From Welwitschia mirabilis (lineage: Eukaryota): 64,000 bases of DNA. The position numbers and the translations under genes were made by a program. The DNA lies in NCBI GenBank assembly GCA_051453625.1, contig JBOZIK010000001.1, positions 28,322,032-28,386,031 on the forward strand. The letters are read 5' to 3'. Below are positions 4,617-35,147 of the stretch, piece after piece. Position 1 is the stretch's first letter; each line of letters opens with the position of its first letter. The notes under the pieces were generated by a model. The model made no database searches, was not told the DNA's origin, and saw only the letters and a list, made by a program, of their open reading frames with translations.

Positions 4617-5140
4617 CATCATTAAATACATATTCTAAAATCAATAACTTTTAATACTTAAGAGCTATGATTATGATACATAATCATGTGTTACATGTTA
4701 TATAATGATAAAATACCATTAAATACATGATTTGAACATAATGGATTACACTACTTGAAAGCCCTCATTAGAGTAAACAATCATGTGTCACATTTTCACT
4801 TATTAATAATGGCTATTAAAAAAACTACCTTTAGCTACATTAACTAAAATAAATTGTTTTTACTACTTAAAAACTATTATTAGGGTAAATGATCCTGTTT
4901 CATTTGTCATATATAGTAAAAAACATTATAGTTAAAAAACTACTATTAAACTCATGATTTAAAATCAATATCTCGCACTACTTAAAAGCTAAGATTAGGT
5001 AGGTGATTAGTTTTCACACATTACATTTATTAATGGTGTTTATACCTTAGAACTACCATTAAATACATGAAGTAAAATTAATGTATCTTACTATTTAAAA
5101 GTAATAATTAGCAAAGATAATCATGTGTAACATTTTACAC
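4617..5140. repeat. Degenerate tandem repeat, about 5 units of ~100-115 bp
   Basis: Recurring blocks ccattaaatacat ... ctacttaaaagct ... taatcatgtgtcacat starting near 4617, 4713, 4826, 4940 and 5053. Confidence 0.7.
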
Positions 5141-5490
5141 CAACTGTATGGAATTGCTAATATGATGGTTACTTATCACAACCATAATTAAACATTATTA
5201 TCTTTTACAAATCATCATTAAATAGATATAGAAATAACATTTAATGGAGATGTGTAAACTACTATGAATTACATTTAATAATAACCTAACAATAGTTAAC
5301 AGATAAAACCACAATAAAGGAATTCTTATCATTATGAAATTAGGTAGATTAGTTAATTAACACACTAAAATGTTTGGTATATTTTTTTATTAATATTAAT
5401 CTATTTTAATGTTAAGATAAAAGAAAACTAATGCTTATTATCACTTAAACTAATTATTAATTTTATGTCAATAGGTTAATTATTACTCAT

Positions 5491-5512
5491 TATATATATA
5501 TATATATATATA
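5491..5512. repeat. (TA)11 microsatellite
   Basis: Seen directly. Confidence 0.95.
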
Positions 5513-6399
5513 CAGGTATAATAAACAATTGACATGATTAACAAAAATTAATAATAAATATAAATAAAATAGAAGTAGAGAAAAATGATCTTTATTTGGA
5601 TGAAATAATAATAGAAAAAGTTGTTAAGCATAAAGTATTATCTTAATTTATTAGTGAAACAGAAAAAAAGGTTTCCTCCTTTTCATAAAGAACCTTTAGC
5701 ATAAGGGAAATCATCTAGAGTAAATAAGAACTATAACAATTTAGAAGTCCATAGTATGAAAAAGTTTATAGCTTGTTGTCATTTAAAGGATGACAGAAAT
5801 TTTACACAATTAAATTGCAAGGCCCACTACTTAAATCATTTTAGCTCTATTAATCCCAATGATCTAGAGCTTCTTTAGAATGTTAAAAACATAACAAATT
5901 TCTTCAATATGTACTTTTGAAAAAAATACTTTATAAGAATACTTAATTTACCTAAGTTTATTTAACTCCTTTTGTAAAGATATTCATTTACAACTAGAAT
6001 GAAATTACTTGAGGTTTTTTCTCTTTTTTTAACCTCATATTTATAGACATTTGGAGAAATTGAACCCACAATCATAAATGAATGGAAACACTACTCTACT
6101 ATCAAGGTATCTTTGAAGATACTCCTTAAGGTATTTAAGGTATTATAGGATTTTCAATCATGCCTTCAAATCATGAAGAGTTCTTAAAAGTTCTTTCTTA
6201 GATACATTTCACTGTATTAAAGTATTAAAGGAGTTAAAAGAACAATTCTTAAAAATTAAATAAAATGAAAATAAGAGATTTAATGATTTTATGCATACGT
6301 ATAATGTATTATAGGATAAGTCTCTCAACCATGTCTACTTGAGAAAGAGGTATAGCTTGACATCAAATGAGTTGGATTTATTATGTAGAGGAAGCATAA

Positions 6400-9300
6400 A
6401 AACTAAGATACTATTAAAAATAGGTAAGACAATTTCTTAGTTATATAATATCAGTTAGGAATGGGAGTAGATAATGTGAAAAGGAGTAAGGTAAATGATG
6501 TATTAGTAAAAGAAATAAAATGAACTATGTATAGGTCTAAATACATTAGTCCTATAGAATGATTAGTTTAAAAGAAAACTAGTATAATGATAAAAAACTT
6601 TGATACATTAACCATATGACATTTTAAAGAATAATAGGTACCGACCTATAAGCACTATGGAAAAGATGATCAATAGGATATAGAGTACCATTTAACACAA
6701 GAATTTGTTCAATGACTAGATATAAACAAGTTGAATTTGAACTCAAAAATATAACTCTATTATTAAAAAAAAAAAATCATACCCTTCCTAAAATAAAAAG
6801 TGAAAAGGTAAACTAGAAAAATCTTATAAAAATATATATCCTCTAAGAGACAACAATAATATGAATACTATATAGATTCAATAAATAAGGATAAAAAATT
6901 ATATGGATAAATAAGAAGTAGAAAAGAAGAAGGAAATTATCTACTTAAGCTTAATTAAACTTTAAGAAAGGAACTAGTGAAGCAATGTATGCCATATTAG
7001 ACAAACCTATGATCACAAATTTAACTTCTAATAGCTTAATCAACATATTCATGGAAGAGGAAACAAATGTAGAAAATTAGATAATGATCAGAAAAAAATA
7101 AGAACCCCTATCCTTTCTAATGAAAAATGAAAAATCAAGCATACTAAGATTGAGAAATAATTAGAACACTTAGCCAAATAACTATGAGTTACATAAGTTT
7201 TGTTACCTCTTATAATAATTTTCAAAGGTATTTCTATGTATGAAAAAAAAGTAAAAAATATGTTTTAAAAACAAAGGAGTAAAAATAAATTTAGAAAAAT
7301 ATAGATATAGATTATTAAAAGAGGTAAAATTTATTAGGCCTCTACATAAGTTTTCTACAATAAATTACATGAAAAATATAATAAGATAGAAATCCATATG
7401 ATAGATATAAACGTTTGACAGTAAACTAAAAATTCAATATTTTGTAAATTTAGGAAAGAGTATGAATGTTATGAATTATGAAGCCTATGAGAAACTTGAA
7501 AAAATATAACTAACACCTAATCAAGAAATAGTTTATTTAGTAGATGGGTTAGTAGTAAGACCTTAAATACTATTAAAAGATATAATTATTAAAATTAAAG
7601 TATTCATCTATTTAATTAATTTAATAGTAATGAAAACCTAAGCAGATATATAACTATTATTGTAGGAAGGTCATAACTGACTAATACTAATTCCACAATG
7701 TAATCTAGAAAAGGGGCAATGACAAATAGTTTAAATGAAGCAAATAGAAAATTAAATTATCTAATGCTACTTTCAAAGAAGAAATAGTACCCTATACAAA
7801 GATAAAAAAATATTATCTTAACTCAAGAATGACATAAAAAATTAAAATAATAAAATTAATAAAACTATAAGGAGGATAAATTAACATCTTAAGAAGTAAA
7901 TAAGCCTCCACTTAAAGAAGGATTAGAATGTATAGAAGTGGTATCCAATAAACCTTTGGTTATAAATAGTAAGTTAAATTATTCCTAGGAAAAAAAAATC
8001 TTAAAGAATTTTGATTAAGAGAAAAGCAGTCTTTTCTTAGGATTAAACTAACATAAAAGGAATAGATTTAGAAATTTACTAACATAATGTCTATTTAGAT
8101 ACTTAAGTTAAGTCATGTAGATATCTTGAGAGAAGGTGTAACCTCAAATGCAAGGCATTAATAAATAAGTTATCAATAAACTCTTAGATATAGGATTTGT
8201 TTATTTTATACCATACTTAGAATGGGTTAATTATATTATATTGGTAATGAATTACTCTTACTATAATGGAACCTAAAAAGGGTAATAAATGGAGAGTCTA
8301 TATTAATTTTAAGATGTTAAATGCAACTTTATCTTTTTTTAATTAATTTATAGGCAGGTTATGTAAGCACTAGAATTGTAGTTTTTTATATGGATATATT
8401 GATTATAACCAAGTTCCTATAGCTTTAAATGACTAAGATAAAAATAATATCTTCCTATTATTAAAGCATTTATGTTTTAAAAGTTTTAAAATTTAGTTAA
8501 TGAATTGATAAGAGACTAATAATAAGTATTCTTAATACATATTTGGTAGATCATTAGAAGTTTTTATGGATTAATTCTCAATGTTTGGGAATAATTGATG
8601 GATTACTAAGTAGGTTGAAAAAAGTAATGCAAAGATGTGAAGAGAAAATATTAAAACTAAAATAGTCTAAAAGTTATCTTATCATAATAAAAGGGATAAT
8701 ATTAGGGTAAAAAATCTTTTAAAACATTATAGAAACTAATGAGTAAAAGGTTAGGTCTATAAAGAAAACACCCCCACCTACTAAAATTAAAGAACTAAGA
8801 AATTTTCTAGGACATGTAAGTTACTATAGGAGATTTATAGCAAACATTAGCAAATTTTCCAAACATTTAATCCTTTCATAAAATGTTGTAAAATTTTATT
8901 GTACATTTAAAAGAAAAGAAGCATTTCAAATTTTGAAAAAAAAAAAGTTGATAGAGGAACTGATTCTATAAGGTCCTAATTGGCCAAAAAATTTGCACAT
9001 AATAATTAATGCATATAATTATTCTTTAAGAGAAATTACACAAAAATGATGATTAAAATAAATCTTATGATATTACTTAGATAAGCAAAAAATTTAGAGT
9101 TATCTTAATAAAATTATATAGTAACTAAATAAGAAATGTTAACAATAGTGCCAACATTGGAAAAATTTATTCATTAATTATTAGAATATGAAATGATAAT
9201 ACACACTCATCATGATTCCATCATATTACTTGTAAATGAGGGAAAAAATTCTAAATTCATGATGTGGCTATTATTAATGGAAAAATATAATTTAAAAATT

Positions 9301-10030
9301 ATAAATAGAAAGGGTATTAAAAAGGTAGTCATAGATAATTTGTCAATATTACAATTCCATTATGTACATAAGTAGGTAGATGAAGGAATGAATTTCCTAA
9401 TGAACAAATTTTAAGAATTCAATGAGTTCCCTAGTTTACTAAAATATTTTATTTCATAGTAAGTTAAAAAACAACTTCTTACTTACATTACTATAAAACA
9501 AAAATATTACTAAGAGAAGTTAGGGATTACATATGACATGGTAGAACTTTTTTAAAAATGTTAAATATCATATCATAAGAAGATGTTTGAAAGACAGATT
9601 ACAAAAGAAAATATTAAATGAATCTCATAAAATGGATTATGAGGAATCCTATGGAGCAAAAAGGACAAGAGTTAAGATTTTAAACATCAGATATTACTAT
9701 TCAATTATATTTAAAGACACACAGCTCTATGTTAAAAGTTATGATAATTATGAAAAAGACGAAAAATTTTTCAAAATTTAGAATTGCCTTAAAAATGAAC
9801 TTAGACTTCAAAATAATTGATCTCTAAGATTAAGATTTTATGGGATCTATTAATTTCAATTTAGATACTAAAAACTATATGTTATTATATGTTTATTATT
9901 TAACTAAGTGGGTTGAGGCTAAAGTATTATTTCACTATTCCTCCCAAACTATTATGAATTCATTTCTTAATGATATCAGTTATTGGCTTACTACTTCTAA
10001 AAGTTTTATTTCAAAGTAATAAACTTACTT
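6400..10030 (+). mobile_element. Heavily decayed Ty3/gypsy (Athila-like) gag-pol relic, PR-RT-RH-INT order
   Basis: Manual translation: protease-like FVNLGKSMNVM (~7440), RT WRVYINFKMLNAT (~8290), LEVFMD*FSMFG (~8555; Athila EVFMDDFSVFG), FLGHVSYYRRFI (~8805), RNase H-like ORF 9193-9375, integrase DFMG (~9835) and LTKWVEA (~9900). Many stops; LTRs not identified; start approximate. Confidence 0.85.
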
Positions 10031-14175: not shown

Positions 14176-15391
14176 TGTTTTGATGCTAATTTGTATGTAT
14201 TTGATGGGCTATTTTAAGTACTTTCTAAGATATTTATATATTTTTAAATGCAACTTTCATGATTATTGAGAGTTGATATGATGATCATGGAAACGCATAA
14301 TTCTTAGTATATTTTGACGTATTTTAGGTATATTTTAATACTTAGTGTTTTGAAGAAAAGATCAATGATGTAGAAGGCTGATTTATCTTAAGCTGGAAAT
14401 ATAAGGAAGTCTATTATGCCCTGTGTTATTATCATAATAATCAATATGATAGTACTACTAATATGAAATAAAGTTGTGTGACTGACTACAGACTCAAAAG
14501 CTAATGACTCACCTATTATTGGGGCATCATTCCTAGTGTTTTCTAGATAATATAAAGAGCAATAACTATTTTATTTGAGTGAATTCAATTATCTTTTGTA
14601 TAGGGTCATGTAACCCATCTGGGCTGCTGGGGCTTCTTCTCTAACTTTTAGGGTTATGGTTCTAGAAACCCTAATTTAAAACTATAAATATCCTTATTGT
14701 CCTTATTTCCTACATATCTTTTATACCAGATATTATACGAGGTTCATCCCCATAGCTACAAAGATAAGTCTTAGTTAGTGTTGGGTTGTGTATCTTCTAT
14801 TGATGTGCTACTACTTTGTTTAGAAGTGGATGTTAATTCATAATTAATATAATAACTCTTTTCTATTCTATTGTGTAAACCTCCCTCATGGTTTACACTA
14901 GTTATGATTTTATCATAGCTTCATAGTTGATCTAGATCATGAGGGTAACCTTTATTAAGGTTAATATTTTTAGTTTAGATTTGTATTTATTTCATGTTGC
15001 ATTTTTATAATTACATATTCTATTCAATGTATCTTATAGATTTATGTTGGTTAGGATTAAGTGCTAGTTTCCTTAATTAATCTAAATTATAAGGACTAAT
15101 CTTAATGATAAGAAGATTGGCAGTCAAATATATTCATCATTTATTGCATTTAAATTTCATCATCATTTATCTTACATTACATTTGCATTATTTCTTATTT
15201 TATTTACATAAAAGAAAAAAGACTAAATATACTTTGTTGAAATCACTTCTCTAGTGTCTAGCCTTAGTTCCTTCAATGGATTATGATAGTTGGTTAACTC
15301 TCATTTATACTCGTTTGTGTTTTTCTATAGGTATTTTGATTTACAAGTTTTACCTAAGAACTTAAAGATTGTATAAATTCAAATGACAACA
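14176..15391 (+). repeat. 5' LTR of element A
   Basis: Colinear with 20823-21781 plus 31187-31415; TGTT start, ACA end, TATAAA at ~14683. Confidence 0.85.
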
Positions 15392-15967
15392 TTTTGACAC
15401 TACTATCAGTAAAGGGTATAAAGAGGGAGGATCATCACTATCCACATAAGTATCTTAGACTTCAGTTTAAGTTATTTATTTAAAATACTATTGTATTTAT
15501 ATTTTAGTTTTTATAGGTTTCTTTTTTAACAAATTTTTTATTTTAGTAGTGTTAATAAGTTCTGTCATCCTCTTTATCATTCCCATAACCAAGTGGAAAA
15601 CAATGTGCATTTTTGTCTTTTTTTATTTTAGTAATAAAATTTTCTAATTTTTGATAGTGTAATAAAGTTGAAATCATCCTCTTTATCATCCAAACAGTGA
15701 GGTGGATGACTATTTGTAGTTTTTGCTTTTGTTTCTAATATTTTTTGTAATTATTTTTTGGGTTCTTCACAAAATAAGTGTTTGTTATCCTTCATGTCAT
15801 CAAGACAACATCCAAGACAATGTTTTTATGCATCTTATGAGTAATTAAGGATTGACATGATTTGGTAAAAACATGAAATATTAGAGAAAACAGAGTTTAA
15901 TCTTCACATTATACTTATATTTTATCATCTTGATTAATTATCTTATTTTATCCTTCTTAATTATTTA

Positions 15968-17750
15968 ATGAATAGTGATAAAAAAATATTTGGAGAAATC
16001 CTTTCTAAAAGGAGGAAAAACTTGAGAAATTCTAAGGAAAATGGTAAGAAAGAACTTAGAGAAGTTTTTGCAAAAAGAGGAAGGAAAATAAAAAATAATG
16101 TTGAGAATAGGAATTGGGCTCATTCCTCTTTTTAACCTTTTTATTTTTTTCCCTTCTCTTTTTAGACATCATATAAAAATAATCATGAAAATTTTCAACA
16201 TTTTAGGTATTCCACGTTATCTAGAGAAACATCCTTCAATCATTTTAGTTATTCATCTCCCATGAATTACTATAAAGAAGATCCACCATCTATGAACTAC
16301 TATGAGAAAGAAAATAATCCAATGAAAGAAATGATTGATGAAATGAAGAATAGGTAAGAAGATACTAATAAGAACATAGAAAATTTGATTGAGATCTTTC
16401 AACAAATATTGTTATAAAATTAAAGTTCTTTTGTAATAAAACATCCTCAAAACTATTCTACTACATCCTAGCATAAGGAAAATGAGGAAAACTTAGTAAC
16501 AAGTAACAATGATTCTTGCTTTGAAATAGAAAATGACTTTTCAAAACAAAATTTAACATCTTACTCATTATGAGATGACCAAAAGGGAGACAGTGATAAC
16601 TTGACTCAATTTTTTAATAATAAGGATGAGGATGGTTATTCATTAGATTATGGCGTTAAGGTATTAGATTATATTCTTATCATCCATTTATTACTAGAAA
16701 ATCCATATGAGAAATCCATTCATGAAGAATCTAAAAACTTTTCAATCTATGATGAAGATGATGCTCACATTTCTCTTGATACTCTTTTTGATGAATCCAA
16801 CAACTTAAAGAATGAGAAGAATTCTCAATAATAGAAGAAAGATATAGTTAAAAAAAATGATGAAGAAAGTGAGGAAATAATTCAACAAACTAATTATGAA
16901 GATAATAATAAAGAATATGAATACAATGAAGGATACATATAGATTTATTCAAACTTTATAGATGATAGACTTGTTCATGCCAATACAATAAATAAACCTA
17001 AAAATTCTACCCATATTTCTCCATCCCTTTCAATTTTACATTCATGAAAAAGTTTAGATTAGATTCTTTCTTCTACTACTACTTTCATATTACCTTATCA
17101 TCTTGATATGATAACATTTTTCCTTTTCTTCTATTTGAACCTTTATGTCATTTTCAAAGCCATATCCCTTTTCTTAAATTCATGAAACTCATAATTTTAA
17201 AAAGCATATTCCTAATATCTATTAATCTCTTCTTTTTAAAAATCATTGTGATGCTTAAGATAACATCCTTCCCATTTCTATCAAATCATCTTGACATTGT
17301 ACCTTTCATGATTACTCATTTTAAAAGTATAACTTTAAATATCTTGGAATTTTAAATTTGGATAAACTTTATCTTCTTGATAATAATTCATTCTTAGAAT
17401 TAAATCCTAAGGAGCTTTTTAATCTTATTAAACACTCTATAAGGCCCTTAAAAACTTCTTGGATCCATTTTTTGAGTTATATCTTAAATGAATTATATAA
17501 TGATACTCAAGATTTATGATGTTTTAATAAGAGATTATTTATTCGTAAAATTTATCACTCCTTTATCTCTTATTTGGATTCTAAAATTTGTTCTATTAAA
17601 GTTTTATCATTTTACTCTCTTTTACTCAAATTGGTTTTACTTCAAAATGATTGTATACCTTTTATGTTTTATTAATTGTTTTCTATTTGGTTTAGCCCTT
17701 ATTTTTCTTAAAAGTAAAATACCTGAGTGCATCTTTTACTTAACTAATTA
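15968..17750 (+). pseudogene. Decayed basic/acidic ORF of unknown function inside element A, homologous to 59273-60940 in element C
   Basis: DQKGDSDNLTQFFNNKDEDGYSLD (A) vs EQRVDSDNLTTSFNNEDENSYLD (C); YLGILNLDKLYLLDNNSFLELNPKEL (A) vs YLGIINWQKPYLLDLNPCLELKVKEL (C). Confidence 0.6.
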
Positions 17751-18329
17751 GCCTTTTAATGGTTAGGTATTTATCATTTAGAAAAAGTAATTTTAATGGA
17801 TTAGTTAAAATATTCAATCTAAACACTCAGAAAATTTAGAAGTTATGGAAAAAAGGATAAACATCATTGGTATACTTATTGATTAAATCTTAAACATAAT
17901 AGAAGCACTTATCTTGGATTTTTTATTTTCTATTATTTAAATTCTTCGTTAGCCAATTCTTTGGTAAACATTATGGTATCACTTGAACATATTTAACTTT
18001 ACTAATGTTTTACTTTATGCATTTACCATGACTAGTAAATCTTTTACTTAGGAATTTTAAAGTAATAAGAATGACCCACCCAATTTTAAGACATTTAAAT
18101 ATCTATGAATTTCATGTCAAAGGAGGATGACTTTTTTTTTTTTTAATTCTCTTTCAGTGGTTTAAGTCTTTAGGTATTTAGGTGTACTCCTTTGTTTCGC
18201 ATTTCATTACTTCACCCTTATCCTTATGAGTCCTTAGTCATATGAAATTTAATAATTTACTTCTATTTAAAAAGAAAATAAATAAATGATAACCATGATC
18301 TTTTATCTCTGAGCTAAAACCATGGTGAT

Positions 18330-18483
18330 CATGATGTCCTACCACAAGCACACTAGGGCAAATTTTTCTAAGAGGAAACTTTGGTAATGTGATATGGTAT
18401 CTACAAGAACTCTATAAGGGAGTTATTTGGCCATGTTGTGTTGGTTCTTACTCCTCTAACATTGGTTTACTCCCCTCATCATG
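18330..18483 (+). other. Predicted conserved multi-stem RNA structure, copy in element A
   Basis: Closing stem catgatg/catcatg, ctacca/tggta., cacact./t.atgtg, gggagt/actccc; homologues at 23838-23992 and 58158-58312. Confidence 0.55.
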
Positions 18484-21400
18484 GAAATAATTATCACTTA
18501 CAGGATTTAGATCAGTTATGTTCCTAGTGTTAGAAGAGGTATTACTTATTTTTTGGACTAGATTTACATATAGTACTTTCATATGATCATTCTACTTTTT
18601 TAGATTAGTGCTATTTTGGAGTGTGAGTGAGTGAGTTTATTTCTGAGTTGCTTTTGATATTATCATTCATTGATCGAGAGCATTACGTATACTTCATGTC
18701 ATCATAATTATTGCCTATTCAAGTGGTACTTTATGAGTTTTTTAGATTATGTCATGCATCATTATTAGGTGGTTTTATGATTTCTACCAAATGATTTTAC
18801 TAGGTTAGAATCTTGGATAAGTAAAAAAAAAATCTTCTTCATGTTTCTAATTATCCAATTTTATTATGTTTTTCTTAGTTGTTTTATTTGATATTTTAAA
18901 TTCATTTCCATACTTTTTAAGAAATCATAATTAAGAATTGATAATTAAGTGGTTTTTTGTTTTCTTTTTATTTTTACTTAATGGTCTTTATTCATCAGGG
19001 GTGCTTTTCCTTTAGCACTTTGATTGATGTATGCATTTTACTTTGATTGATTCATTCCTTTTATTTTGTGATGATGCTATTTCTATTTCTTTTCTTTTGA
19101 ATTTGCATACATTTACTTGCAAATCTTGAATGACATATTGAGTTCTGTCACATCTAAGGATTTTCCTTTAGCATTAACTCTCTCTCTCTCTCTCTCTTCT
19201 TTGTGCATTATCACTACTTTCTTTGATATTCTTTTCTATTTCTTTGAGTTCTTTCCACTTGTAACTCCTTTATCATGATCATTTTGATGTCCATTCTTAG
19301 CTTTTTTCCATTTTTAAACTTTATGATAACTTTTCAAAGCTTTACTAATGCTATCATTGATTATCTAATCCTACTTGGATTTTACTATTTTTTCAAATCC
19401 TTCTTTTCCTAAGTGTGATCCCATGTCTGATATCCAAATGATGATATGGATGACCTGGTNNNNNNNNNNNNNNNNNNNNNNNNNNNNNNNNNNNNNNNNN
19501 NNNNNNNNNNNNNNNNNNNNNNNNNNNNNNNNNNNNNNNNNNNNNNNNNNNNNNNNNNNNNNNNNNNNNNNNNNNNNNNNNNNNNNNNNNNNNNNNNNNN
19601 NNNNNNNNNNNNNNNNNNNNNNNNNNNNNNNNNNNNNNNNNNNNNNNNNNNNNNNNNNNNNNNNNNNNNNNNNNNNNNNNNNNNNNNNNNNNNNNNNNNN
19701 NNNNNNNNNNNNNNNNNNNNNNNNNNNNNNNNNNNNNNNNNNNNNNNNNNNNNNNNNNNNNNNNNNNNNNNNNNNNNNNNNNNNNNNNNNNNNNNNNNNN
19801 NNNNNNNNNNNNNNNNNNNNNNNNNNNNNNNNNNNNNNNNNNNNNNNNNNNNNNNNNNNNNNNNNNNNNNNNNNNNNNNNNNNNNNNNNNNNNNNNNNNN
19901 NNNNNNNNNNNNNNNNNNNNNNNNNNNNNNNNNNNNNNNNNNNNNNNNNNNNNNNNNNNNNNNNNNNNNNNNNNNNNNNNNNNNNNNNNNNNNNNNNNNN
20001 NNNNNNNNNNNNNNNNNNNNNNNNNNNNNNNNNNNNNNNNNNNNNNNNNNNNNNNNNNNNNNNNNNNNNNNNNNNNNNNNNNNNNNNNNNNNNNNNNNNN
20101 NNNNNNNNNNNNNNNNNNNNNNNNNNNNNNNNNNNNNNNNNNNNNNNNNNNNNNNNNTACTTGTATAATTAGCATTATAGACATCATTTAGTAGGCCACA
20201 TTAGCATAATTACAGAACATTCTTATAGGTGTGATCCAAGATACTTAAGTGACCATGAACAAGGAAAGTAATATTATGATTATTTTTGTATTTACCCCTT
20301 GTAGATTGTATTTAAAACTTATTGATTAATTTTTATGCATCATTTTAAGTTATCACTACTTAGTTTATTATATCATTCTAAGTTATCAGTATTTTTGATT
20401 ATGCATATACATCATTATTTTCTAATTTACCATGGTTATATCTTATGGTAATTTTTGTGTATGACATTTAATTTTATCTTGTGATCTATTAAATCTTTTA
20501 AGTGGCAGGCTAATTAAGATTTCAATACTTGTTTTCTTTTTTTTAAATAATATGATCATGTTTACAAGAACTTAGTTTTAATTCTAATTTCCAAAGCCTG
20601 TCATCCTTACAATTGTCTAAATAACACATAAGACAACAGATATATTATGCGTACTACAGAAATATTACATTAGTTAATTAGTTTTTGATATTTGATCCAA
20701 TATGGTAAATATTTTTGAACTCAATTTACAATTTTCTAGTTATTATTTATCTTAGTTAAATTGGCTCATGATATTATTGATTAGTTACATTATCAGGAAC
20801 TGACAAGGCTAAGTGGTGGCTATGTTGCAATGCCAATTGATATGTATTTGATGGGGTACTTTTAGTACTTTTCTAGGATATTTATATAGGTCTAGATGTA
20901 ATTCTAATAATATGGAAAGTTGATGGAATGATCATTAGAACATATAATCATTGGTATATTTAGAGGTATTTTAGGCATATTCTAATACTTACTATTTTTA
21001 AGGGAAGATCAATAAAGCAAAAGGCTAATTTTTCTTAGTTGGAAATATAATGAAGCCTATTGTTCCCTTTGTCATCACCACAATAGCTAGGACGATAGTA
21101 CTGTTGACATAGAATAAAGCTATAAGGCTAACTATGAATCTAGAAGCTGATGGCTTACTTGTTATCAGGGCATCATCCTCAATGTCATTCAGATAATAAG
21201 AGAGATAAAAACTATTTTATCTAAGTGAATTTAATTATCTTTTGTAATGAGATCATTTACTCCATCTAGAGTACTAGGGTTTCTTCTCTAACTTTAAGGG
21301 TTATGATTCTAGAAACCCAAATTTAAAACTATAAACACCCATCTTGTCCTCATTCATAATTCATCTTTTGTACTAAATATTATTGTGATAGGAGACTGAA

Positions 21401-23837
21401 GAACAGGAGGTTTATCCATAGCTACAGAAAGAAGTCTTCCCTGGTGTTGAATTGTGTATTCTCTATTAAGGTGCTGCTACTTTTTTTGTAAGTAGATGTT
21501 AATTCATGATTAACACAAAAACTCTTTTCACCTCTATTGTGTGAATCTCCCTTATGATTTACATTGGTTATGATTTTGTGATAGCTTCATAGTTGATCTA
21601 GATCTAGTTGACATTGTTAGTTTATATTTGCATTCATTTCATGTCACATTTCCATAAATGCATATTTTAATTGATGTATCTTATAGCTTATGTTAGTTAG
21701 GATTAAGTGATAGTTTCCTTAATTGATTTAAGTTATAAGGACTAATCTTAGTTCCAGAAAGATTGGTAGATAAATCATCATTTTTGCAGTGTATATTTGT
21801 GTAAGTGATTAAGTCAAAAGGATTTTTTCATTCATAAAATAAATAGATATCTCACACAATACAACACATAATATGAGTGATAGTAGACCGAAAATGTTAT
21901 ATTCACTTTAAAGACTATGAGATAAGACTCAGATTACTTTGCACAAGAATAATAGAAACCAAAAATAAAGAATAATGTAAGAAATAAAAGGTATAATACA
22001 AATGCAAGATGCAACCTAATTTAACATGCAATGCAAAATGGAACTAATACTACTTTCTTTCAGCCTTAACAAAGGATGCCTTTGATAATCTATATTACCC
22101 AAGAAATTGTCACTAGATCAAGGGAAATGTATACTATAAGGGTTATCAGAAAATTTATAATACAAACATGAAAATAAAATAAGGTTTTTGTATTAAAAAT
22201 AGTAACAACATCTAGGTTATAAAATAGTTGAGATTTAATGAATGATACATAGCCCTCCATAAAAGAAACGTCTTTCTACAACACTTAAGATGAATCTCCC
22301 ACCCTTTAATCTCATATCATGAGAATTTTTGGTGTAATGAAGATGAGAAGAAGAGTTGAAGGAGGGCTTATTTATAATAAATCACAACAGAAAAGATAAA
22401 TAGAAGGCATAGCTAGGCATACTTTTTTACATAAATGAAATGAAATAGTTAAGGGTCACTATTAGAGTTAGTTACATATCAGTGTCGTCCTGACTATCAT
22501 CCGAATGATACAGGAATGATAGTTTATTATAAAAGGTAATTCAGCATGATGACTCAGTAGTGATTTATCAATCCTCATTAGCATTCAACAATGTTGTCAT
22601 CTTGCTTATCGTGGGAACGACAAAGGGGACAATGGTCTTCTTAATCATATTTTTAAGGAGAAACTTAGTATTTTTATCAGTAATTCTCCTTCAGAGCTAT
22701 GTACATCAGAATATGACTTAAATACATCAAATCTAGATAAGAATTATACATTTTTTAGATCTGTTATTGAATCTCCAAAATCCTCAGAATCATACTTAAA
22801 CCTATGTAAAAGTCCTATAAAATAACTCATAAAACCCCATCAAATAACCACAAATTGGTGATGTAACATATCCTCCCACTTAACCTTTCTCAGTTTCTAA
22901 TAAAATCTAGGTCAAAAACATAATTACCAGCTAATTTTTTTTTTAAGAAATAAATTTAAAATAATAAAATAGGCTTATAAAACACATTACATAGATAAAT
23001 AGTACGTAATGCATAATGTATATGAAAATTTGGAAAAAAATTTATCTCATGAAANNNNNNNNNNNNNNNACCCCTCCCCGTCTCTTCCGTCCCTCCATAA
23101 CCCCCACTCCCCCCTCCCCCTCTTCCCCACCTGAAAATAAAAAGCAATCGGTCCCATATTAGAAAATAAAGTAAAGAAAGTAGATGGGAGTGAGAAGGCA
23201 GGTAAAAGAGGAAAACTTTCTAAAATGAAGTGAAAAGCTAAGTAATGTCAAATTTGAAAAATACAAATCTATGAAATATTATAACAATGAATAATAAAAA
23301 TGTTTCGTTAAAAAAATAATTAAAAGTAGCACTTACAACACTAAAAAGAAAATTTATTAAAAAAACTCAACTAAGTAAGAAATCTACTTTTATTGAAGAC
23401 CAAATAAGAAAAAAATGATGATTAGAAAATATGGTAGTTACTTTGAAATAATTAACCAAACCATAAAAGAAAATAAATAAAATGGGCATAAGGTAATAAA
23501 AATGAAAGATAGATCACCGATCTGATATTTTAACCTAGCAAACTCCCAAGAAAGAAATCATAACATTACTTGATGTAAAAAATGAATGACTTAATGTATA
23601 AAAAATTTTATTCAATAAGGAAATAGTTATGACGATGCTAAAGATAAAATGAATGATTAGATCAAAGAATTGTTCAAAAATGAACTCACCTACCGTCATC
23701 TCAAAACAACATCCAAATCTCAAGAAATGAAATGATCATGTACAAAGACTAAAAGTTTAGGAAACAAGCAATACCTCTGATGAAATTAGGAACACCACTA
23801 ATCCCCTAGTTGTAAAGTTAAATACAACTTTATTATC

Positions 23838-23992
23838 CATGATGAGGGGAGTGCAACCATAGTTTAAGAAGCAAGAACCCATGAAACATGGCTAACTAAC
23901 CTCCCAGTGGAGTTCTCACAGCTACCATATTACACTACCAAAGGCTCCTTTCAGAAATATTTTCCCTAGTGTACTTATGGTAGAACATCATG
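23838..23992 (-). other. Predicted conserved multi-stem RNA structure, copy in element B
   Basis: Element sense: catgatg/catcatg, ctacca/tggtag, tacacta/tagtgta, gggag/ctccc, gccat-gttt/aaac-atggt. Confidence 0.6.
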
Positions 23993-25503
23993 TTGACTAT
24001 GTTTTTTTGAAATATCATAAATAAAGCATCATGGTCTAATTTACCCTTATGTTTTTCTTATATAAACAAAACAAACATTTCATATGATCAAACATTCTAA
24101 AAGACAAAGGTAAAAGTTGTAAGATAAAGATAGAAAAGAACACTTTTAAAGAATCTAAAACGTTTTCAGCATTAATAAAAATAAGCATCTTCCTCTAAAC
24201 TAAAGTTAATGAATGTATGAATGTCCTAAGATTGGGTAAATCCAATCCTACCACTAAAATACCCAAGTCAAAAGACTAGTTATGGAGATAAATACATAAG
24301 TAAAGTTTGAAGAATGATCAAGTAATTTCATAATAACCTCTAAAGGAAAAAAAAAACTAAGAGAAAATTTAGATGGTTTTCTTATGAAATTTCAAATTTT
24401 GTTCATTAACTTTCTGCAATTCTTAAGTAGTTAAATTAGAGATTTCAATAGAGCCATAAAAATGTATTTTATTAAATAATAGAAAACCAAAATTGATATT
24501 TTATTATCTATTATCTTAAGCATCATTTAGACGAAAAAAAGGATGATAGAGGTTGAGAAGCAGAAATTTATCAGAAAAACATAAAAAATTATCAGAAAGC
24601 TAGAAGAGTAGCAAAACTGACTATCGTCCATCTTATCATGAGGACAATAGAGGAGATGACAGATTATTATAATAGAAAATAGAAATACAGATTTCAAATA
24701 AACATAAAAACTAAAAACAGAAAATGAAATTAGAGACTATCAAAATAGAAGCTTAAAAAAATGGCAAGGCAAACAAATTTTATTCAATTTCTAAATCTAA
24801 CTCACACTTTTATTAAAAAAAAAAAAGAAAAAGAAAAATTTAAGAATCTATTTTGATCCCAAGATTTTTAGAGAAATAAGATCCAAACCAAAAATTTTCT
24901 AATTGATAAAAACATAAGAGATGTATAATTACTTCTAAGTAAAATTAATTGGATGAAGAGAGAAGTAATGGAGAGCACTCTATAATACCATATTAAAGCA
25001 CAAATTTTAAAAGTTAAATTAGAGAGAAATGGTAACTCTGATAAATTATTATCATTGAATGTAAGAGTTTTATTTTAAAAATATTAAGAAAAATTATATG
25101 TAAGTCCATTAAAAATATTTTCATCTAAATTTAAATTATGATCTTTAATTTTTAATTTATGTAATGAACAATCTTCTTCATAATCTTTCTTGAAAAGTTA
25201 GACTTCCTTACACTCTAAAGGTTTTAGTTCTTCTTCATTCTTAAGTTTTTCATCACAAATCACATGTTCATTTGATTTTATCTCTCTTTCTTTAAGTGGG
25301 TGATGTTATAGAAATAAATTTAATATGATATTATCTTCAATGTTTATTTCATTACCTAAATCTTTCTTAGCTGCATCAAAAACTGTAATTAAAAATGTTT
25401 TATTTCTAAAGTGACATTTCATTATTCTAGCACTTGTATCAATGATGCAATGGGATATTGCACAAAAGGCTCTTCCTCGAAGTAAAGGATGTCCTCTGTT
25501 ATG

Positions 25504-25881
25504 CTAAACTTTTATGATAATTACATCTATGGGGTAGCAAGCCTCTTCTATTTGAATTGCCAAATCTTTAATGATACCTATCGATTTCTTAACTGAAGTG
25601 TTTGCTAATTCTAAGACAACAAGAGTAGGCTCTATTCTATCCTCTGAATCAAGTCTCTTACAAATGTGAAGGGACATAATATTAGCACTCGCTCTAATGT
25701 CTAGAAAGGCTTTTTTAATCTTTTTGTTTCCCTCCAAAGTAATATTCATCATAGTTGCTCCTAGATATTTAGATTTGAATGATTTTTGTAATACTAAATT
25801 TGTAAGGGATTGGGCTAGAAAGACTTTACTAAGGATGATTTTAGGTCCTTCCAAAGTTTTGAGTACCTCAGATTTTTCCAA
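25504..25881 (-). pseudogene. Gypsy aspartic protease fragment (element B)
   Basis: KAFLDIRASANIMSL ... LELANTSVKKSIGIIKDLAIQI matches the Athila protease pattern LDLGASVN ... LQLAD ... GIIEDV. Confidence 0.85.
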
Positions 25882-28800
25882 AAGAGTAAGTTTATGCTTA
25901 TGTTTTTCATTAAGGGTTTTATATGTTTATTAAAAGTTGAATTGTTATTAGGCTTATCAAACTAAGAGGTGATTTTTTGAGAAGGATTTTTCATTTTCTT
26001 TTTTCCAAGAGAAGGGAAGTTATAATATTCTTATATTTAAATGTCTTCTTCCTCTTCTTCTTCATCATTTCTAAAATCATTTTAGAAGGTGTAAGGTTTA
26101 TTTGAAAAAGGGTTTGTTTCTTGTCCACTTTATGTCACAGCCTTATAATTTTTTCTTAGTTTATTTGGGTTTGGTAAAGGTTGTATAGCTAATGTTCCTT
26201 GAGGTTTTTAATTTGTTAGTATTTTTTATTGAAATATGCTTACCATGTTTTCCATGTTGGCATTTGTTCCTTCTAAGTTCCTTTATAAGGTTTGTGAGTT
26301 GATCATTTGGATATTGAAAGTTTGATGATCCTAATTAAGAGTTTAAGTTTTTAAATTGGTTTCTAAAAGGTTGAGAATTATTTTGGAAATGACTATTCAA
26401 TCTTGGTTGTTCTTAGTTTTGATTTCTAAATTTTTGGGATCATTGGTTAAAAGCATAAACTTCTTCTTAAATTCTTTCTTTGTATGTTAGCAAAAGAGGA
26501 TAGTTTTTAGTAATATAATAATTATGTTCACATAAGTCATAAGTTTGCATAACATTTCTTTTGGTTGTGATTTTAGTATCTATAATTATTTTCGCATACT
26601 TCTCTAAGGTCGTTGTAAAATATTTCACAGAATTTAGGATTCTATTCTACCTATTTTTATTGTTTAACCTTTTTTAAGTCCTTGATAAGTTGGCCTACAT
26701 TTTAATTTTCTTTAGGTATTGACCAGGTTTGATTAACCTCTACAAGTTCTTCTAATTTTATTCAGGCATCTTCTAATGTAAGATTTATGAGATTTTCACT
26801 ATAAGAAAAATCTATAATTTATTTTGTATGGGGAGTTAATCCACTATAAAAATGATCTAGTTGTTTTATTCTTAAAAAGGCATCTACTAGATTAGAATGT
26901 ATTGCTATAGGAAAATGTTCATAAGTAGAGGCATAATCTTCATTTGGTTTTTGTTGTAAGTTTATTACTTCTTTTTTGCTTTTTCTTATAGTTTCTTCAC
27001 TTATGAATCTTTCTATAATAGTTTTTTGACTTGATTCAAAGTTTTTAAGTTTTTGTAAGATATAGTTTTTAACCAAAGTTTTGCTCTGTCCTTTAATGTC
27101 ATGGAAAAGATTATCATATATGTTTTATCAATTATTTTTTTCTTTTTGTTTCCTAAGGTGAGGATTAGTTATTCAATGTCTTCAATGTGTTGAAGGGGAT
27201 CCTTATCATCTTCTCTGCTAAAAGTTTGATAGGCATGTAAATTTTTAATCTTAACATCATCTCCTAAGGGTAGGTCAAAAGGTGTTTGAATTTCTCTTTT
27301 CTTATTCACTAATAATTCCCTCAGGGTAAGGTTTGCATTAGGGGTAGAAGATCCGATGACTTATTTTTACTTAAAGGAGGCACTCAACATTGTAAATTGA
27401 TTCTCTCCTTCTATGAGGTCTTTATTAAGAAAATCTAAATTAAAAAAATAGATTCGAAAGGAGGTTTGAGTGCATATGAAGATTACTTGTTTGATTTATT
27501 TTATATACCTACCAGTCCTTCTTTGATGTCCTTTTCTATTAGCATCTTTTCTCTTAGATATCTCTTCTCTATGTTAATCATATCACATCATCTTGTAAAT
27601 AGTAAATAATAGAAAACAAGATCAAAAAATAACAAACTATCATCCTGTCTATTATGGGAATGATAGAAGGGATGACAGACACAGACCTAGAAAAAAACAG
27701 AAACAGAACTAAAATAAAAAATAGAAAGCGGAAAACATAAAAAACAGGTCTATTATTCACTTGGTCATCTAGATGTCATAGGAGATGAAAGAAATAATTT
27801 ATTTGTAAAAAGATCAAAATATAAAAATGAAACTAAGAACAAAAAGCACATGCTGTCATCCTTCCTGTCGTGGGGATGATAGTGGAAATGACCACAAATT
27901 TTTTATAGAAAACTGAAACTAAAAAAAATTGAAACTGAAAAATGGCACATAGAAAACCTATAATTCCTAATAAAATATGCTGCCACTATAGATAAATAAC
28001 TGAATAGAGGTCTGATATACTCATCTAAATGATAACAACCTTTATACTCCCCAATATCCTTCTCTAGTAATGACGCTACTTTATTGCAGTGTGCCTATCA
28101 TTTACCACCAAAATAGATATCTTACATAATACATCACACTAGTATGAGTGGGAGTAAATCCAAAATGTCATATTCACATTGAAGTCTATGAGTATGAGAC
28201 TTAGGTTGCTTTGCAAATGAATTAGGTACCAAAAATGGATAATAANNNNNNNNNNNNNNNNNNNNNNNNNNNNNNNNNNNNNNNNNNNNNNNNNNNNNNN
28301 NNNNNNNNNNNNNNNNNNNNNNNNNNNNNNNNNNNNNNNNNNNNNTTGAATATTAAAAGTTTTATGGTCCTATTTGAGAGTTTAAGTTTTTCAAATAGTT
28401 TCTAAAAGGTTGAGAATTATTTTGGAAATGAGTGTTTAACCTAGGTTGTGCTTGGTTTTGAGTTTTTAAGTTTTGAGATGGGTGGTTAAAAGCACAAAAT
28501 TCATCACATATTCTTTCTTTGTATATTGCAAAAGAGGATAGTTTTTGGTAACATTATAATTATCATCACATAAATCACAAGTTTGCACAACATTTTTTTC
28601 AGTTCTAGATTTGGCATCTAAGATCATTTTTATATACTTCTTTAAGATTCTTGTAAAATCTCTCATGTAATTTGCAGGATTAGATTTTACCTTTTTTTAT
28701 TTTTTAATCTCTTTTAAGTTTTTGATAAGTTAGCCTATAGTTGGATTTTCTTTAGGAGTTGACCAATTTTAAATAACTTCCACAAGTTCTTTTAATTTTA

Positions 28801-30084
28801 TCCAGGAATCATCTAATATAAGGTTTATGAGGTTTTCTCTATAGGAAAAATCTAAAACATGGAATTATCCTACTATAAAAGTAGTCTATTAATTTTGTTA
28901 ATGAAAAAGCATTTACTGGATTAGAATGGTAGGCTACAAAGAAACGCTCATATCTAGAGGCATAGTTTTCATTTGGTTTTTGTTGAAAGTTTGTTATCTC
29001 CTTTTCTATTTTATTTATGGTTTATTCACTTATAAATATTTTTATAAAGGTATTTTGGACTTGATCCCATGTTTTTAAGCTTTTGTAAGGTATAGTTTTA
29101 GCAAATGTTTTACTCTACCCTTTAATGTCATCTTAAATATTATCATATATGTTCTATCAATTATTTTTTTCTTCCCATTTCATGATGTGAGGATTAATTA
29201 TTCTATGTCTACTATGTGTTGAAGGTGATCCTCATCATCTTCTCCACTAAAAGCTAAATAGGCACTTAAATTTTTAAGCTCGATGTCATCTCTTAGGGGT
29301 AAATCAAAAGGGGTTATAATCCATCATTTCTTATGGGCTAATAATTCTCTAATGATGAGGTTTGCATTATGGGTAGAAGATCCTATGACTTGTTTTTGCT
29401 TATGAGATGTACTTAACATTGTGAATTAGTTTTCTTCTTCTATAGGGTTTTCATTAAGGAAATTTAACTCAAAAAAGATAAATTTAGAAGAAGGATTGAG
29501 TGCACCTGGAGATTTCTTTTCTGATTCATTTTCTATGTTCACCACTCCTTCTTTAATGTTTTGCTCTATCAATAGCCTTTCTCTTTGATATCTTTTCTGA
29601 AGATTGACTATATTACATCATCTTGTAAATAGCAAACAATACAAAAAAAGATCAAAAACAAAATACCATTGTCTTGTCTGTCATGGGGACAATAGAAGGA
29701 AAGATACACATAGAAACCAAAAAAATAGAAACAGCATAGAAACTGAAATAGAAAAACGAAAACTTAAAAAATAGGATTGTCATACATTTGGTCGTACAGA
29801 TGGCACATGAGATGATAGAGACTAATTTATTATAGAAAAATTTGAAATACAAAATAAAACTAAGAATAAAAATTATATATGGTCGTCTTGTCTATCGTGA
29901 GGATGATAGAAGGAACGACCAATATTTTTCTACAGAAACTAAAACTAAAAATCCGAAACTGAAAAACTGCACATAGAAAACCTATAGTTCCTAATAAACT
30001 ATAATGTTGTTACAAATAAATAACTAAATGGAGGTTCAATGTACTCATCCAAATGATGACAACCCTTAAAATCTTCAATAGCCT

Positions 30085-30102
30085 TCCTCGGCAATGGCAT
30101 CA
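30085..30102 (-). promoter_or_regulatory. Primer-binding site, tRNA-Asp type (element B)
   Basis: Minus strand TGATGCCATTGCCGAGGA, 3 nt inside the LTR; differs from Athila TGGCGCCGTTGCCGGGGA only by transitions. Confidence 0.85.
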
Positions 30103-31515
30103 ATTTGTTGCTGTGTGTATTTGTGTAAGTGCTTAAGTTAAAAGGATTCTATTATTCATAAAATAATAGATATCTCACATAATATGACACACTAGTATAA
30201 GTGGGAGTAGACCTGAAATGTTATATTAACATTAAAGACTATGAGACAAGACTCGGATTACTTTGCGAAATAATAATAGAAACAAAAAAAAATGAATAAT
30301 ATAAGAAATAAAGTGTAATGCAAATGCAAGATGTAACCTAATCTAACATGCAATGTAAAAATGGAACTAACACTTCTTACTTTTAACCTTAATAAAGTCT
30401 GCCCTTGATAATATATATCACCTAAGAAATTATCACTAAATTAAGGGAAATATAAAATATAAATATTATTAGCAAATCTATAATGCAAACATGAAGAAAA
30501 ATAAGGTTTTCTATTAAGCAAAGTAACAACATCTAGGGTATAAAATAGTCGAGATTCATTAGAGAATACATAGCCCTCCACTAAAGAAATGTCTTTCTAT
30601 AGCATTCAAGATGGATATCTCATCCTTCGATTTATTATCATGAGAATTTTTGGTGCAATAAAGATGAGAAGGAGAGTCGAAGAAGGACTTATTTATAATA
30701 ACTCACAATAGAAAAAGAAAAATAGAATGCATGACTAGATGCACTCTTTTACATAAATGAAATAGACAAAATGATCAAGACTCACTATTAGAGTCACTCA
30801 CATATTAGTGTCAGCTTTACTATCATCCAGATGACATAGGGAATAATAGGTTATTACAAAAGGTAACTTAGCATGATGACTCAGCAGTGATATATCAATC
30901 CTTGTCAGTATCTAACAGTGTCATCTTCCTACTTATTATGGGAACAATGGTCTTCTTGATCATGTTTTTAAAGAGAAACTTAGTATTTTTATTAATAATT
31001 CTCCTCTAAAAATCTGTGCATCATATTGTGCCTTAAATACATCAAATCCAGATAAAAATTGCACATTTTTAATCTTCTATTGAATCTCCAAGATCCTCAA
31101 AATCACACTTAAACCTATGTAAAATTCCTGTAAAATAACTTATAAAATTCCATTAAATAACCACAAATTGATAGTTAAATAATCATCATTTATCTTACAT
31201 TGCATTTGCATTATTTCTTAATTTATTTATTTAAAATAAAAAAGACTAAAAATACTTTGTTGAAATCAATTATTTAACTTCTAGCCTTAGTGCCTTTAAT
31301 AGATTATGACATTTAAGTTAGCTCCTATCTATAGTAGTGTGTGTTTTTCTACAAGTATTATGATTTATAAGTTTTACCTGAGGATTTAAAGATTGCACAA
31401 ATTTACACCACAATTGCATGTACTCCTCATGCCTAGCCCTATAAGTTGGTAAATATAAATATTTCTAGTTTTTACCTAGTTCATGGCTTTTGATGTGATG
31501 GTAAAGGGCCCAATA

Positions 31516-33449
31516 CTTTTAACCATCTGATTAAGTCTCATTTGCAACTAGGATCTCTTCGTGGGCTATTCCTTTCTCATCACTCTAGTTAGTTTTGTAA
31601 TTTTTACTTTTACAATGACTCTTTCTTTCTAATTCATAATACTCCATTAGATGTTACTTCTTTGCTTTACTACCTAAATATTTACTACTAGGCTTTTTGT
31701 TCTTATATTAATTGAGAAAAGTTTGCATATTTTTTTTCTATATCACTCTCTAATTATCAAACTTATTTGAATTGCCTTATCTAGCCAAGTGAGTTTTTAA
31801 TCTTCTTCATATGCCATTTGGTTTTTCAAGTCTCTCTTTTTTAGCTTTGGTTCTAGGGTGTAGAAAATATTCAATATAAGATTCAAAAATGGCTCTTCAG
31901 ATATATTTTCCTCATCTAGAAAAATTATTATTTGTGATTGAATCCTTGAAACCACTCATGTTTTCTAGTATGTTTATCTTTCTCCCTATAATTCTTCTTA
32001 TAATAAACTTATTGGGATTTTAAGGAACTTTCTTTAGAACTTTAAAATTCTAAACATAGATGATTTATTAGATTTTCTTGTGATGTTTCTACTTATCCAA
32101 AAAATCTTAGAGGATTAGGTATGAAAAATATTTTTCATTAAGTTAAAGTTATTAAAGCTCATTTTCTTGTTAAAGNNNNNNNNNNNNNNNNNNNNNNNNN
32201 NNNNNNNNNNNNNNNNNNNNNNNNNNNNNNNNNNNNNNNNNNNNNNNNNNNNNNNNNNNNNNNNNNNNNNNNNNNTAAAGCAAGGGATGGGGATGTGTAT
32301 GATAAGGTTCGTATTAGGAACTTCATTCAATATAATATTCCTCTTAATAAGATATCTTAGTTATCCTTCTCTCATTATCAGACTTTTCTCTTACCTATCC
32401 ACATAAAATTATAGTGTCCATTCTTCTTAAAGCACTTTGAAACTCTTGACTCTTTATTAAAAGTCTACTTTAAGATCCTAGTATTCTTGTTCACTAGAGT
32501 ACCTTCCTTTTACAGTCCCTTTAACTTAGTGATTCATAAGATAGTCTCATAGAGAAATATGTCTCTACTACCCTTTCTTTATGTCGTAAAGGAATCATGA
32601 AGATTAAAGATGTTTAATATCATCATTTTAGTTTTTGGCTCACTTAGACTCAAGCAAAGTAAAGGTTTCATCTCTCTAATAATAAGAGAATTACCTACTA
32701 CATTTTTTAGTTATGGTTTACTTTTGTTCATATTTATTTAACTGCTTAAAGTGCTTCTATCACTTTATAGTTGTGAGTATGATTTCTCAAAAATGTTTTT
32801 TAACCAAAAATAAAATTTCATGAAGAAATTATGATATGATTATACTTCAATTTTTTAGTGTCTAAATAAAATTATAGGTACTCAACTCTAAGAGGAATCT
32901 TAATATAATTTGTTTTTGTATAGTTGATAGCTTCTTTCTCCTCTTAAAATTTAAATTATTAATTGGTCCCTTTTTAAAATAGGCTTTCTCTTGGAATTCA
33001 GCTTCTTTATTTTTTAGGTTTTAAGCTCAGTTGTTCATATTATGATAACAAAAAATTCTTTGAATGCATCTTTTAGTCTTGTTATATATCTTCTTCTACT
33101 TGGATATGGCTAGTTACTCTTTGAGATAGAATTAAGTTTGGAAGATCTCTTCTCTCCTTAGATTTGGGAAAACTAGTAATCCTCTATAATGGTGGAAAAG
33201 TATTTATAGTATAGGATCTTATTTGAACTATGGAATATTCAGAATAAAGACATCTTTAATAATAAATTCTTAAGTTCTTTTCCTTTCTCTTCCAAATATT
33301 CTATTAGTTAGATATTAAGCTTTAAATTTTGTATGACTCCCTTGCTTTTTCTTTTGAGTTCTTTATTTGAATCTCTTTTCTAATTTGGAACCCACATTGA
33401 ATATGTTTATAATATCTTTTTTAATTATTTAAAATTTTAAAAAGCCTTT
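31516..33449 (+). mobile_element. Continuation (RT C-terminal part and 3' region) of the LINE begun at ~10.6 kb; poly-A tail at 44399-44419 beyond the copia
   Basis: Reading resumes NHLIKSHLQLGSLRG after DAF at 13741; decayed FADD-like region ~31610; after the copia the sequence reads cattcaaaaagtaaaaaaaaa. Confidence 0.7.
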
Positions 33450-34969: not shown

Positions 34970-35147
34970 GTTATAAATTTTACTCTCCCTTTTTGATGAA
35001 ATCAAGGATGGGGAGGATACAAAAAGACTGGATGATATAAAAAGACATAAAAGACTCAGTTATAAATTTTACTCTCCCTTTTTGATGAAATCAAGGATGG
35101 GAAGGATACAAAAAGACTGGATGATACAAAAAGACATAAAAGACTCA
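34970..35147. repeat. 89-bp tandem duplication containing PPT-like tract (AAAAAGGGAGAG on minus strand)
   Basis: Units 34970-35058 and 35059-35147 differ at 2 positions. Confidence 0.95.

Follow-up and report, generated by a model that had tools for sequence, protein, structure and literature searches.

The RNA transport elements of the mouse LTR retrotransposons IAP (RTE) and MusD (MTE) and the constitutive transport element (CTE) of simple retroviruses are a few hundred nucleotides long or less and are located in the 3′ part, upstream of the 3′ LTR; the CTE contains, in addition, a repeated internal-loop motif. In Ty3, the PBS is bipartite, with a second primer-contact site. According to a 2025 review, the IAP RTE and the MusD MTE are structured 3′ cis elements that are needed for the export of unspliced RNA, and the export of LTR-retrotransposon RNA has not been studied directly in plants (PMC12786077). 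Both export and packaging of plant LTR-retrotransposon RNA are essentially unstudied, and the parasitism of autonomous elements by pol-less ones is similarly open. Short conserved non-coding signatures of particular lineages have been described as LTR-internal junction seeds in ATHILA elements and as SIRE motifs in Sirevirus, the ATHILA motifs in the sections available being those of the PBS and PPT junctions (10.64898/2026.03.20.713144). Non-autonomous members include TR-GAG, which are gag-only LTR elements under 4 kb (PMC4350172), and the pol-less Athila families of Arabidopsis (PMC2410132); a conserved 3′ RNA block is not described in the available parts of these papers. Searches of the literature and the passages available disclosed, for ATHILA elements, no account of a structured RNA conserved in the internal region near the 3′ end, although supplementary files may list such motifs.

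Here, we describe a conserved block of 155 nt in three LTR retrotransposons, termed elements A, B and C, from a 64,000-nt stretch of Welwitschia mirabilis DNA (contig JBOZIK010000001.1), hereafter the window. Like the IAP RTE, the MusD MTE and the CTE, the block is located in cis in the 3′ part of the genomic RNA and outside the coding sequence, 0.9–1 kb upstream of the PPT, and it is kept in copies without pol. However, it differs from these elements in its plant host, in that no similarity to them was found at the sequence or Rfam level, and in that support is limited to the 5′ arm of its predicted fold; unlike in the CTE, a repeated internal-loop motif is not seen in it. The block resembles the ATHILA and Sirevirus motifs in being short, non-coding and conserved, whereas the former lie at junctions and the block is internal, ~1 kb from the PPT, 155 nt long and absent from the features described in the sections of that study available. 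The hosts resemble TR-GAG and the pol-less Athila elements in possessing LTRs, a PBS, a PPT and gag/protease remnants without RT, RNase H and integrase; unlike TR-GAG, their internal regions measure 4.4–7.2 kb.

The boundaries of the elements were obtained by self-comparison of the window and from junction sequences. Element B (21776–31188, minus strand) is bordered by LTRs at about 21776–22868 and 30098–31188 with 81% identity, and element C (56222–62856, minus strand) by LTRs at 56222–57293 and 61739–62856 with 80% identity. Element A, on the plus strand, spans 14183–21785 up to the insertion of B; the two LTRs of A share 75% identity, the 5′ one extending to about 15391, and its 3′ LTR (20830–21785, continuing at 31182–31411) is split by element B, which sits in it in the opposite orientation. 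The two halves of this 3′ LTR together match the 5′ LTR of A at 14183–15379 (75% and 84% identity), and both flanks of B read ...ATCATCATTT..., a short target-site duplication being likely although ambiguous owing to a CAT repeat. Element B also contains an internal tandem duplication of ~2 kb (26307–28244 versus 28346–30301, 75.5% identity), which spans the leader and the gag-like region; two stretches of gag-like reading frame can be seen when the sequence is translated. Overall, the LTR pairs of the three elements are 19–25% diverged, and LTR lengths of about 1.07–1.2 kb agree with the LTRs of more than 1 kb that characterize ATHILA, a Ty3/gypsy lineage of the OTA superclade.

In element B, the 5′ LTR end ...CAACA and a 3-nt spacer, AAT, are followed by the PBS TGATGCCATTGCC (30090–30102, minus strand), which has the position and character of an ATHILA PBS and differs by three mismatches, all of them transitions, from the motif TGGCGCCGTTGCC; at three mismatches, 0.43 chance matches per window are expected, and specificity comes from the position. 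The motif TGGCGCCGTTGCC is that given in the ATHILAfinder preprint (10.64898/2026.03.20.713144). The ATHILA PBS is complementary to tRNA-Asp/Asn and follows the 5′ LTR end after a few AT-rich bases. More decayed versions are recognizable by eye at the same position in elements C (61721–61733, minus strand) and A (15395–15407, plus strand), and element C carries a PPT-like run at 57296–57306 (minus strand). Six-frame Pfam scans, in which stops were read as X, revealed weak Retrotrans_gag and Asp_protease matches in B and no recognizable protein domain in C; RT, RNase H and integrase were detected by these scans in neither B nor C. The ATHILA ORF-1 domain PF03078, located downstream of pol, had no match in the frames scanned of B and C; since just 16% of Athila elements possess this domain (PMC6317226), it is not strictly defining. 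In element A, a single ORF was scanned and had no domain match. The original prediction had assigned all three hosts to pol-less Athila elements, which is borne out for B by the ATHILA-type PBS and the gag and protease remnants without pol; C, however, offers a decayed PBS and is domain-free, and the scan of A was limited to one ORF.

The copies of the block occupy 18330–18483 in A (plus strand, 154 nt), 23838–23992 in B (minus strand, 155 nt) and 58158–58312 in C (minus strand, 155 nt), exactly the positions, strands and lengths that had been predicted. Their alignment of 155 columns contains one gap of 1 nt, a deletion near the 3′ end of copy A, which is the most diverged, and it is indel-free over 138 columns. 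The ends of the block, CATGATG and CATCATG, which had been proposed as an invariant closing helix (P1), are indeed identical in all three copies. A 16-base invariant piece at the 3′ end occurs three times in the window at up to three mismatches, versus 0.17 expected occurrences, and none of 100 shuffles reached three. An nhmmer profile of the three copies matched just A, B and C in the window (E values of 4e-47 to 9e-52), the next match having an E value of 6.5. The block precedes the polypurine tract (PPT), which lies downstream in the sense of the element, by 858 nt in C and 968 nt in B; in A, the corresponding distance, like that to the 3′ LTR, is not meaningful, as a run of N (19454–20168, an assembly gap) lies between. 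Further runs of N within the elements are located near 23070, 28240 and 60970.

In reads of expressed relatives (25 reads, RNA run X14), similarity ends 2 nt upstream of the block start, where a purine run is found; conservation thus genuinely ends at the 5′ edge of the block. Directly upstream (58315 onward relative to copy C), these 25 reads contain a long AAAAG-repeat purine run, in place of which the window copies have AT-rich sequence. An origin of the block from a pseudo-LTR, considered because its start superficially resembles the LTR start and, in the expressed relatives, has a purine run before it, was rejected since local alignments of the block with the LTR start were no better than those of shuffled sequences (fractions 0.2–0.97).

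The block is better conserved than its surroundings in all three comparisons, with flanks of ~350 nt on each side. Copies A and B share 120/155 positions in the block versus 185/349 and 185/350 in the flanks, A and C 112/155 versus 198/342 and 184/339, and B and C 129/155 versus 241/338 and 246/331; identity is therefore 0.72–0.83 in the block, as compared with 0.53–0.58 in the flanks of A versus B or C and 0.71–0.74 in those of B versus C. The block is also richer in GC, as had been stated (0.35–0.42 versus 0.17–0.36), and the flanks are AT-rich and full of indels. In sliding windows of 60 columns from the protease remnant to the PPT, the best 5 of 149 all overlap the block. Conservation no higher than that of the neighbouring 3′ sequence had been named as an outcome that would speak against the prediction; the opposite was found, both among the copies and in the family-wide depth described below. 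Three secondary islands of three-copy conservation are present in the 3′ non-coding region (57839–57912, 57967–58026 and 58543–58668 in copy C), coinciding with secondary peaks of family-wide depth (43,000–90,000); these islands might likewise act in cis, or might pair with the block over a long range.

For a view of the whole family, public DNA contigs and raw RNA reads carrying the same species label were compared with copy C, which served as the bait, at 80% likeness. The numbers of DNA contigs placed on copy C were 48,097 and 47,327 in the two runs. Depth, which was taken as the sum of contig mean word depths and is a rough, non-linear measure, reached its maximum in two bins of 81 nt each (58177–58338, minus strand) in both DNA runs and in two RNA runs. 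The summed depth in these block bins was 539,861 and 166,003 in one DNA run (X1) and 384,702 and 119,577 in the other (X2), versus 228–89,709 in the other 27 bins with depth, the LTR start included, so that the block bins are 6–50 times deeper than the flanks and the LTR start. Raw RNA reads (314 and 71 placed), which derive from GC-richer relatives, peak in the same two bins. The family of the block is very abundant, and the coincidence of the DNA depth peak with the RNA read peak leads to the conclusion that the block, its best-kept piece, was under purifying selection family-wide while the family was active. Coverage varies inside the block: depth falls to only 4,454–10,015 at columns 100–104 (58209/58213), 58214 is a break point of many contigs, and the greatest depth is probably that of columns 56–99, so that the 3′ third of the block may not be conserved across the family.

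The same observations have to be weighed against an unlikely explanation in which the block has no function, being shared by recombination or capture with a much more abundant repeat, or being GC-rich sequence that aligns better, with a fold inherited from a deaminated GC-rich ancestor. Flanks with 17–31% GC and numerous indels could produce such an alignment advantage, and a few very deep contigs could dominate the summed depth, which is indeed uneven inside the block; however, coverage at single positions of the block exceeds 128 contigs in both DNA runs, the loose ends at the break points are, by eye, homologous continuations and not foreign sequence, and the secondary depth peaks match the secondary peaks of three-copy conservation. 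Between the block and the LTR start of the elements themselves, furthermore, no significant similarity was found. In addition, C and G sites decay fastest, for which reason a neutral GC-rich block should diverge faster than its flanks, whereas this one diverges more slowly.

The expressed relatives also show how the window copies have aged. Lines of loose ends, 30 letters in length and read by eye (14 and 13 reads in X14 and 10 reads in RNA run X17, agreement 0.82–0.93), yield 50 nt (columns 18–67) of the GC-richer expressed relatives. By eye, the three copies differ from these relatives at 12, 12 and 13 of the 50 positions, and 12, 11 and 11 of the differences, respectively, are C-to-T or G-to-A; where the relatives have CG, the window copies have TG, CA or TA, and no CpG is left in the block of any copy. 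In the block, which has 50 variable columns, transitions outnumber transversions by 37 to 11. Because all CpGs have been lost, the differences are of the deamination type and the LTR pairs are 19–25% diverged, copies A, B and C appear, as judged from their sequences, to be long-dead insertions in which the block was nearly identical at the time of insertion and subsequently decayed neutrally by C-to-T and G-to-A changes.

This history bears on the interpretation of paired changes in the predicted structure. Across the three copies, 9 of the 47 pairs of the RNAalifold structure are changed on both sides, whereas column shuffles give 3.2 ± 1.6 double-changed pairs and none of 300 reaches 9; none of the flank windows displays a comparable excess. 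The structure originally predicted has five such pairs, with 2.0 ± 1.1 in shuffles (4 of 500 reach five) and 0–3 in slid controls. When neutral, context-dependent deamination was simulated from random ancestors at 42–45 variable columns, 0 of 300 runs reached nine double changes; with heavier decay (~61 variable columns, as compared with 50 in the block), 5–11% of 150 runs did so, and up to 12 double changes were obtained from random ancestors, which would also suit a functionless block. The excess of double changes is real but modest. As a test of structure, the energy z-score from column shuffling was discarded since the flanks reach −3.0 in sense and −6.6 in antisense orientation versus −3.1 for the block.

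The original prediction carried the caveat that paired C-G to U-A changes can also arise from two independent deaminations, and this turned out to be the main issue: seven of the nine double changes are double transitions between G-C and A-U in dead copies. The remaining two, pairs 87–128 and 104–113, each lose their pairing in one of the copies. Sites that were once CpG or CHG are involved in pairs 20–62 and 26–56, and pair 21–61 has changed from G-C to A-U in all three copies. The double changes cannot record selection because the copies were dead when they occurred; what they preserve is evidence of G-C complementarity in the ancestor. More generally, in heavily methylated plant repeats the G-C pairs of an ancestral helix are converted to A-U by two deaminations, often with CpG facing CpG, which in dead copies mimics compensatory evolution. 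Scans of other contigs selected 3, 0 and 0 stretches among viral contigs, none (with a degenerate pattern of 23 positions) and at least 119 (with the invariant 16-mer) among metagenome contigs, and at least 120 among prokaryote contigs. Blastn of the block with 100 nt on either side against 242 of these loci gave no match longer than 40 nt; the short matches were all at seed or chance level, and the analysis of the fold rests on the three copies.

The fold had been predicted as a multi-branch RNA of ~155 nt composed of the closing helix P1, a long P2 arm, a short P3 hairpin and a P4 helix, GGGAG/CUCCC. The sequences of all the named helices are present in the copies, and the fold is essentially the minimum free energy (MFE) structure of A and B, whereas C reproduces only P1 and P2. 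The P2 helix written as CACACUA/UAAUGUG for copy A has both strands in place but contains a C·A mismatch at pair 24–58; the predicted P4 is at odds with RNAalifold, which pairs the GGGAGG strand with columns 121–128 and not with CUCCC. In the predicted structure, 90.5% of the cells pair and 21 of the 42 pairs never vary; P1 has no variation and is hence uninformative either way.

Compared with dinucleotide shuffles, the MFE of the whole block has z-scores of −0.63 (A), −0.90 (B) and +0.08 (C), with no excess stability, and single-sequence z-scores that are not significant would also suit a block without function. The 3′ half carries no folding signal (z −0.88, −0.19 and +0.38 in A, B and C). 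The 5′ arm (columns 9–72), in contrast, has z-scores of −1.37 in A (18338–18401, plus strand; 17 of 200 shuffles as stable), −2.65 in B (23921–23984, minus strand; 2 of 200) and −1.05 in C (58241–58304, minus strand; 29 of 200), its MFE structure has one shape common to all three copies, and RNAalifold retains it together with P1. In the expressed relatives, 10 of the 11 pairs of the two inner 5′-arm helices are kept by eye, with the tip CCC-GAGA-GGG; pair 25–57 is C·A in these relatives and became paired in the window copies only through decay. The pairs kept in the GC-rich relatives are a better argument for a real 5′ arm than the double changes are. The 155-nt multi-branch RNA finds some thermodynamic and comparative support in its 5′ arm, but not in its 3′ half or in the ordinary z-scores of the whole block. 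It is most likely that columns 9–72 form a stem-loop of ~64 nt, consisting of CUACCA/UGGUAG, a 7-bp helix, CAAA/UUUG and an apical hairpin of pyrimidines and purines; the closing helix P1 and the helices P3 and P4, which the 155-nt model also contains, are unproven.

A match to a described RNA family had been listed as an outcome that would contradict the prediction, and the Rfam search at gathering score, covering among others hammerhead and other self-cleaving ribozymes, miRNA precursors, tRNA, 5S and SRP, gave no match in the whole window. Searches around each copy at E values up to 10 returned chance-level matches of 11–24 bits, versus gathering scores of 34–85, their sensitivity being lowered by the decay of the copies. 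No tRNA genes were found in the window.

These searches also bear on a role of the block at the level of DNA or small RNA, namely as an internal promoter or enhancer, or as a hairpin of ~64 nt that is a Dicer substrate with a 21-nt arm. A retrotransposon-derived small RNA is known in siRNA854 of Arabidopsis Athila6; the 5′ arm is an imperfect hairpin of ~20 bp, the size of a miRNA precursor, and the strongest family-wide conservation coincides with the 3′ arm of this hairpin and ~30 nt beyond. RNA reads are about equal in both orientations (20.8 versus 24.8, X14), but this says little, as the libraries are of mRNA type and may be unstranded. Moreover, no Rfam miRNA family was matched at E values up to 10 in any copy, the placed reads have no discrete starts or ends, and a small RNA that targets the element itself would not obviously be retained by it. 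We regard such a role as quite improbable.

It is likewise unlikely, although marginally less so, that the block is a short remnant of protein-coding sequence kept for its peptide, either the end or another part of an additional ORF read in sense frame 1 or, as in the related Retand/Tat lineage, an ORF on the antisense strand. The 138 indel-free columns and the GC-rich island would be natural for coding sequence, and the stops of sense frame 1 all derive from CGG, CGA or CAA, those shared by at least two copies corresponding to CGG or CGA in the expressed relatives. Conserved stops are present in sense frames 2 and 3; antisense frames 1 and 2 have few, between one and three per copy, with none common to all three. 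However, similarity in all frames stops at the block borders, third codon positions hold no excess of the differences between B and C (by eye), and a second expressed subfamily differs from B in frame 1 by one synonymous and four non-synonymous codons (by eye). Pfam had no match for the block in B or C, in each of which all three sense frames were scanned, or in the three antisense frames of the 3′ region of B, and a HMMER profile built from the sense-frame-1 translations of the three copies found, among 1.84 billion representatives, a single spurious repeat match to a bacterial amidase. Word-based protein searches, run for sense frame 1 and for antisense frame 2, were empty as well, which is weak evidence given that the decayed protease ORF likewise finds nothing. 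Coding by the block is accordingly unlikely, though less so in antisense.

We therefore favour, tentatively and with somewhat less than even confidence, the reading in which the block is a cis-acting RNA or replication element with a real 5′ stem-loop that was kept by non-autonomous copies. Under this cis-element reading, an abundant LTR-retrotransposon family of the ATHILA lineage would carry the block as a non-coding, GC-rich island ~0.9–1 kb upstream of the PPT, and purifying selection would have kept it while the family was active, including in non-autonomous members with only gag and protease. Selection on the block that extends to such members makes a cis-acting signal on the genomic RNA the most likely explanation, and the signal may have been recognized by proteins supplied in trans. 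We infer that the block acts as RNA; by analogy with the 3′ transport elements of IAP and MusD, its role could be the handling of genomic RNA, i.e., nuclear export or packaging/dimerization. The original claim of a cis element that non-autonomous copies must keep is supported by the family-wide depth peak and the three-copy conservation, but not in the form of action as a 155-nt multi-branch RNA.

A more specific but doubtful proposal is that the block does in plants what the IAP RTE, the MusD MTE and the retroviral CTE do in animals, as a structured signal by which the unspliced genomic RNA of ATHILA-lineage elements and of their gag-only parasites leaves the nucleus or enters particles. If true, it would be the first such 3′ RNA signal defined for any plant LTR retrotransposon. 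The block is a concrete candidate for an export or packaging signal, and annotation could use it to mark the lineage.

The remainder of the window contains further repeats. A Ty1/copia element (33449–44393, minus strand) has LTRs at 33449–34736 and 43088–44393 that are 83% identical, an RVT_2 domain in the ORF at 39677–40138 (E 1e-20) and an internal tandem duplication of 1.8 kb (about 35859–37651 versus 37752–39447); directly after it, 44480–46301 consists of two tandem copies of a unit of ~910 bp with 86% identity. At 55787–56197 (plus strand), a copia-type Pol beta-barrel fragment (PF22936, E 6.5e-19) lies immediately next to the 3′ LTR of element C, which was probably inserted into or beside an older copia element. 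Finally, a 188-aa ORF at 48919–49485 (minus strand), located in a stretch of 37% GC and with a weak C2H2 zinc-finger match (22.8 bits, cutoff 25), is perhaps the window's sole candidate for a host gene.
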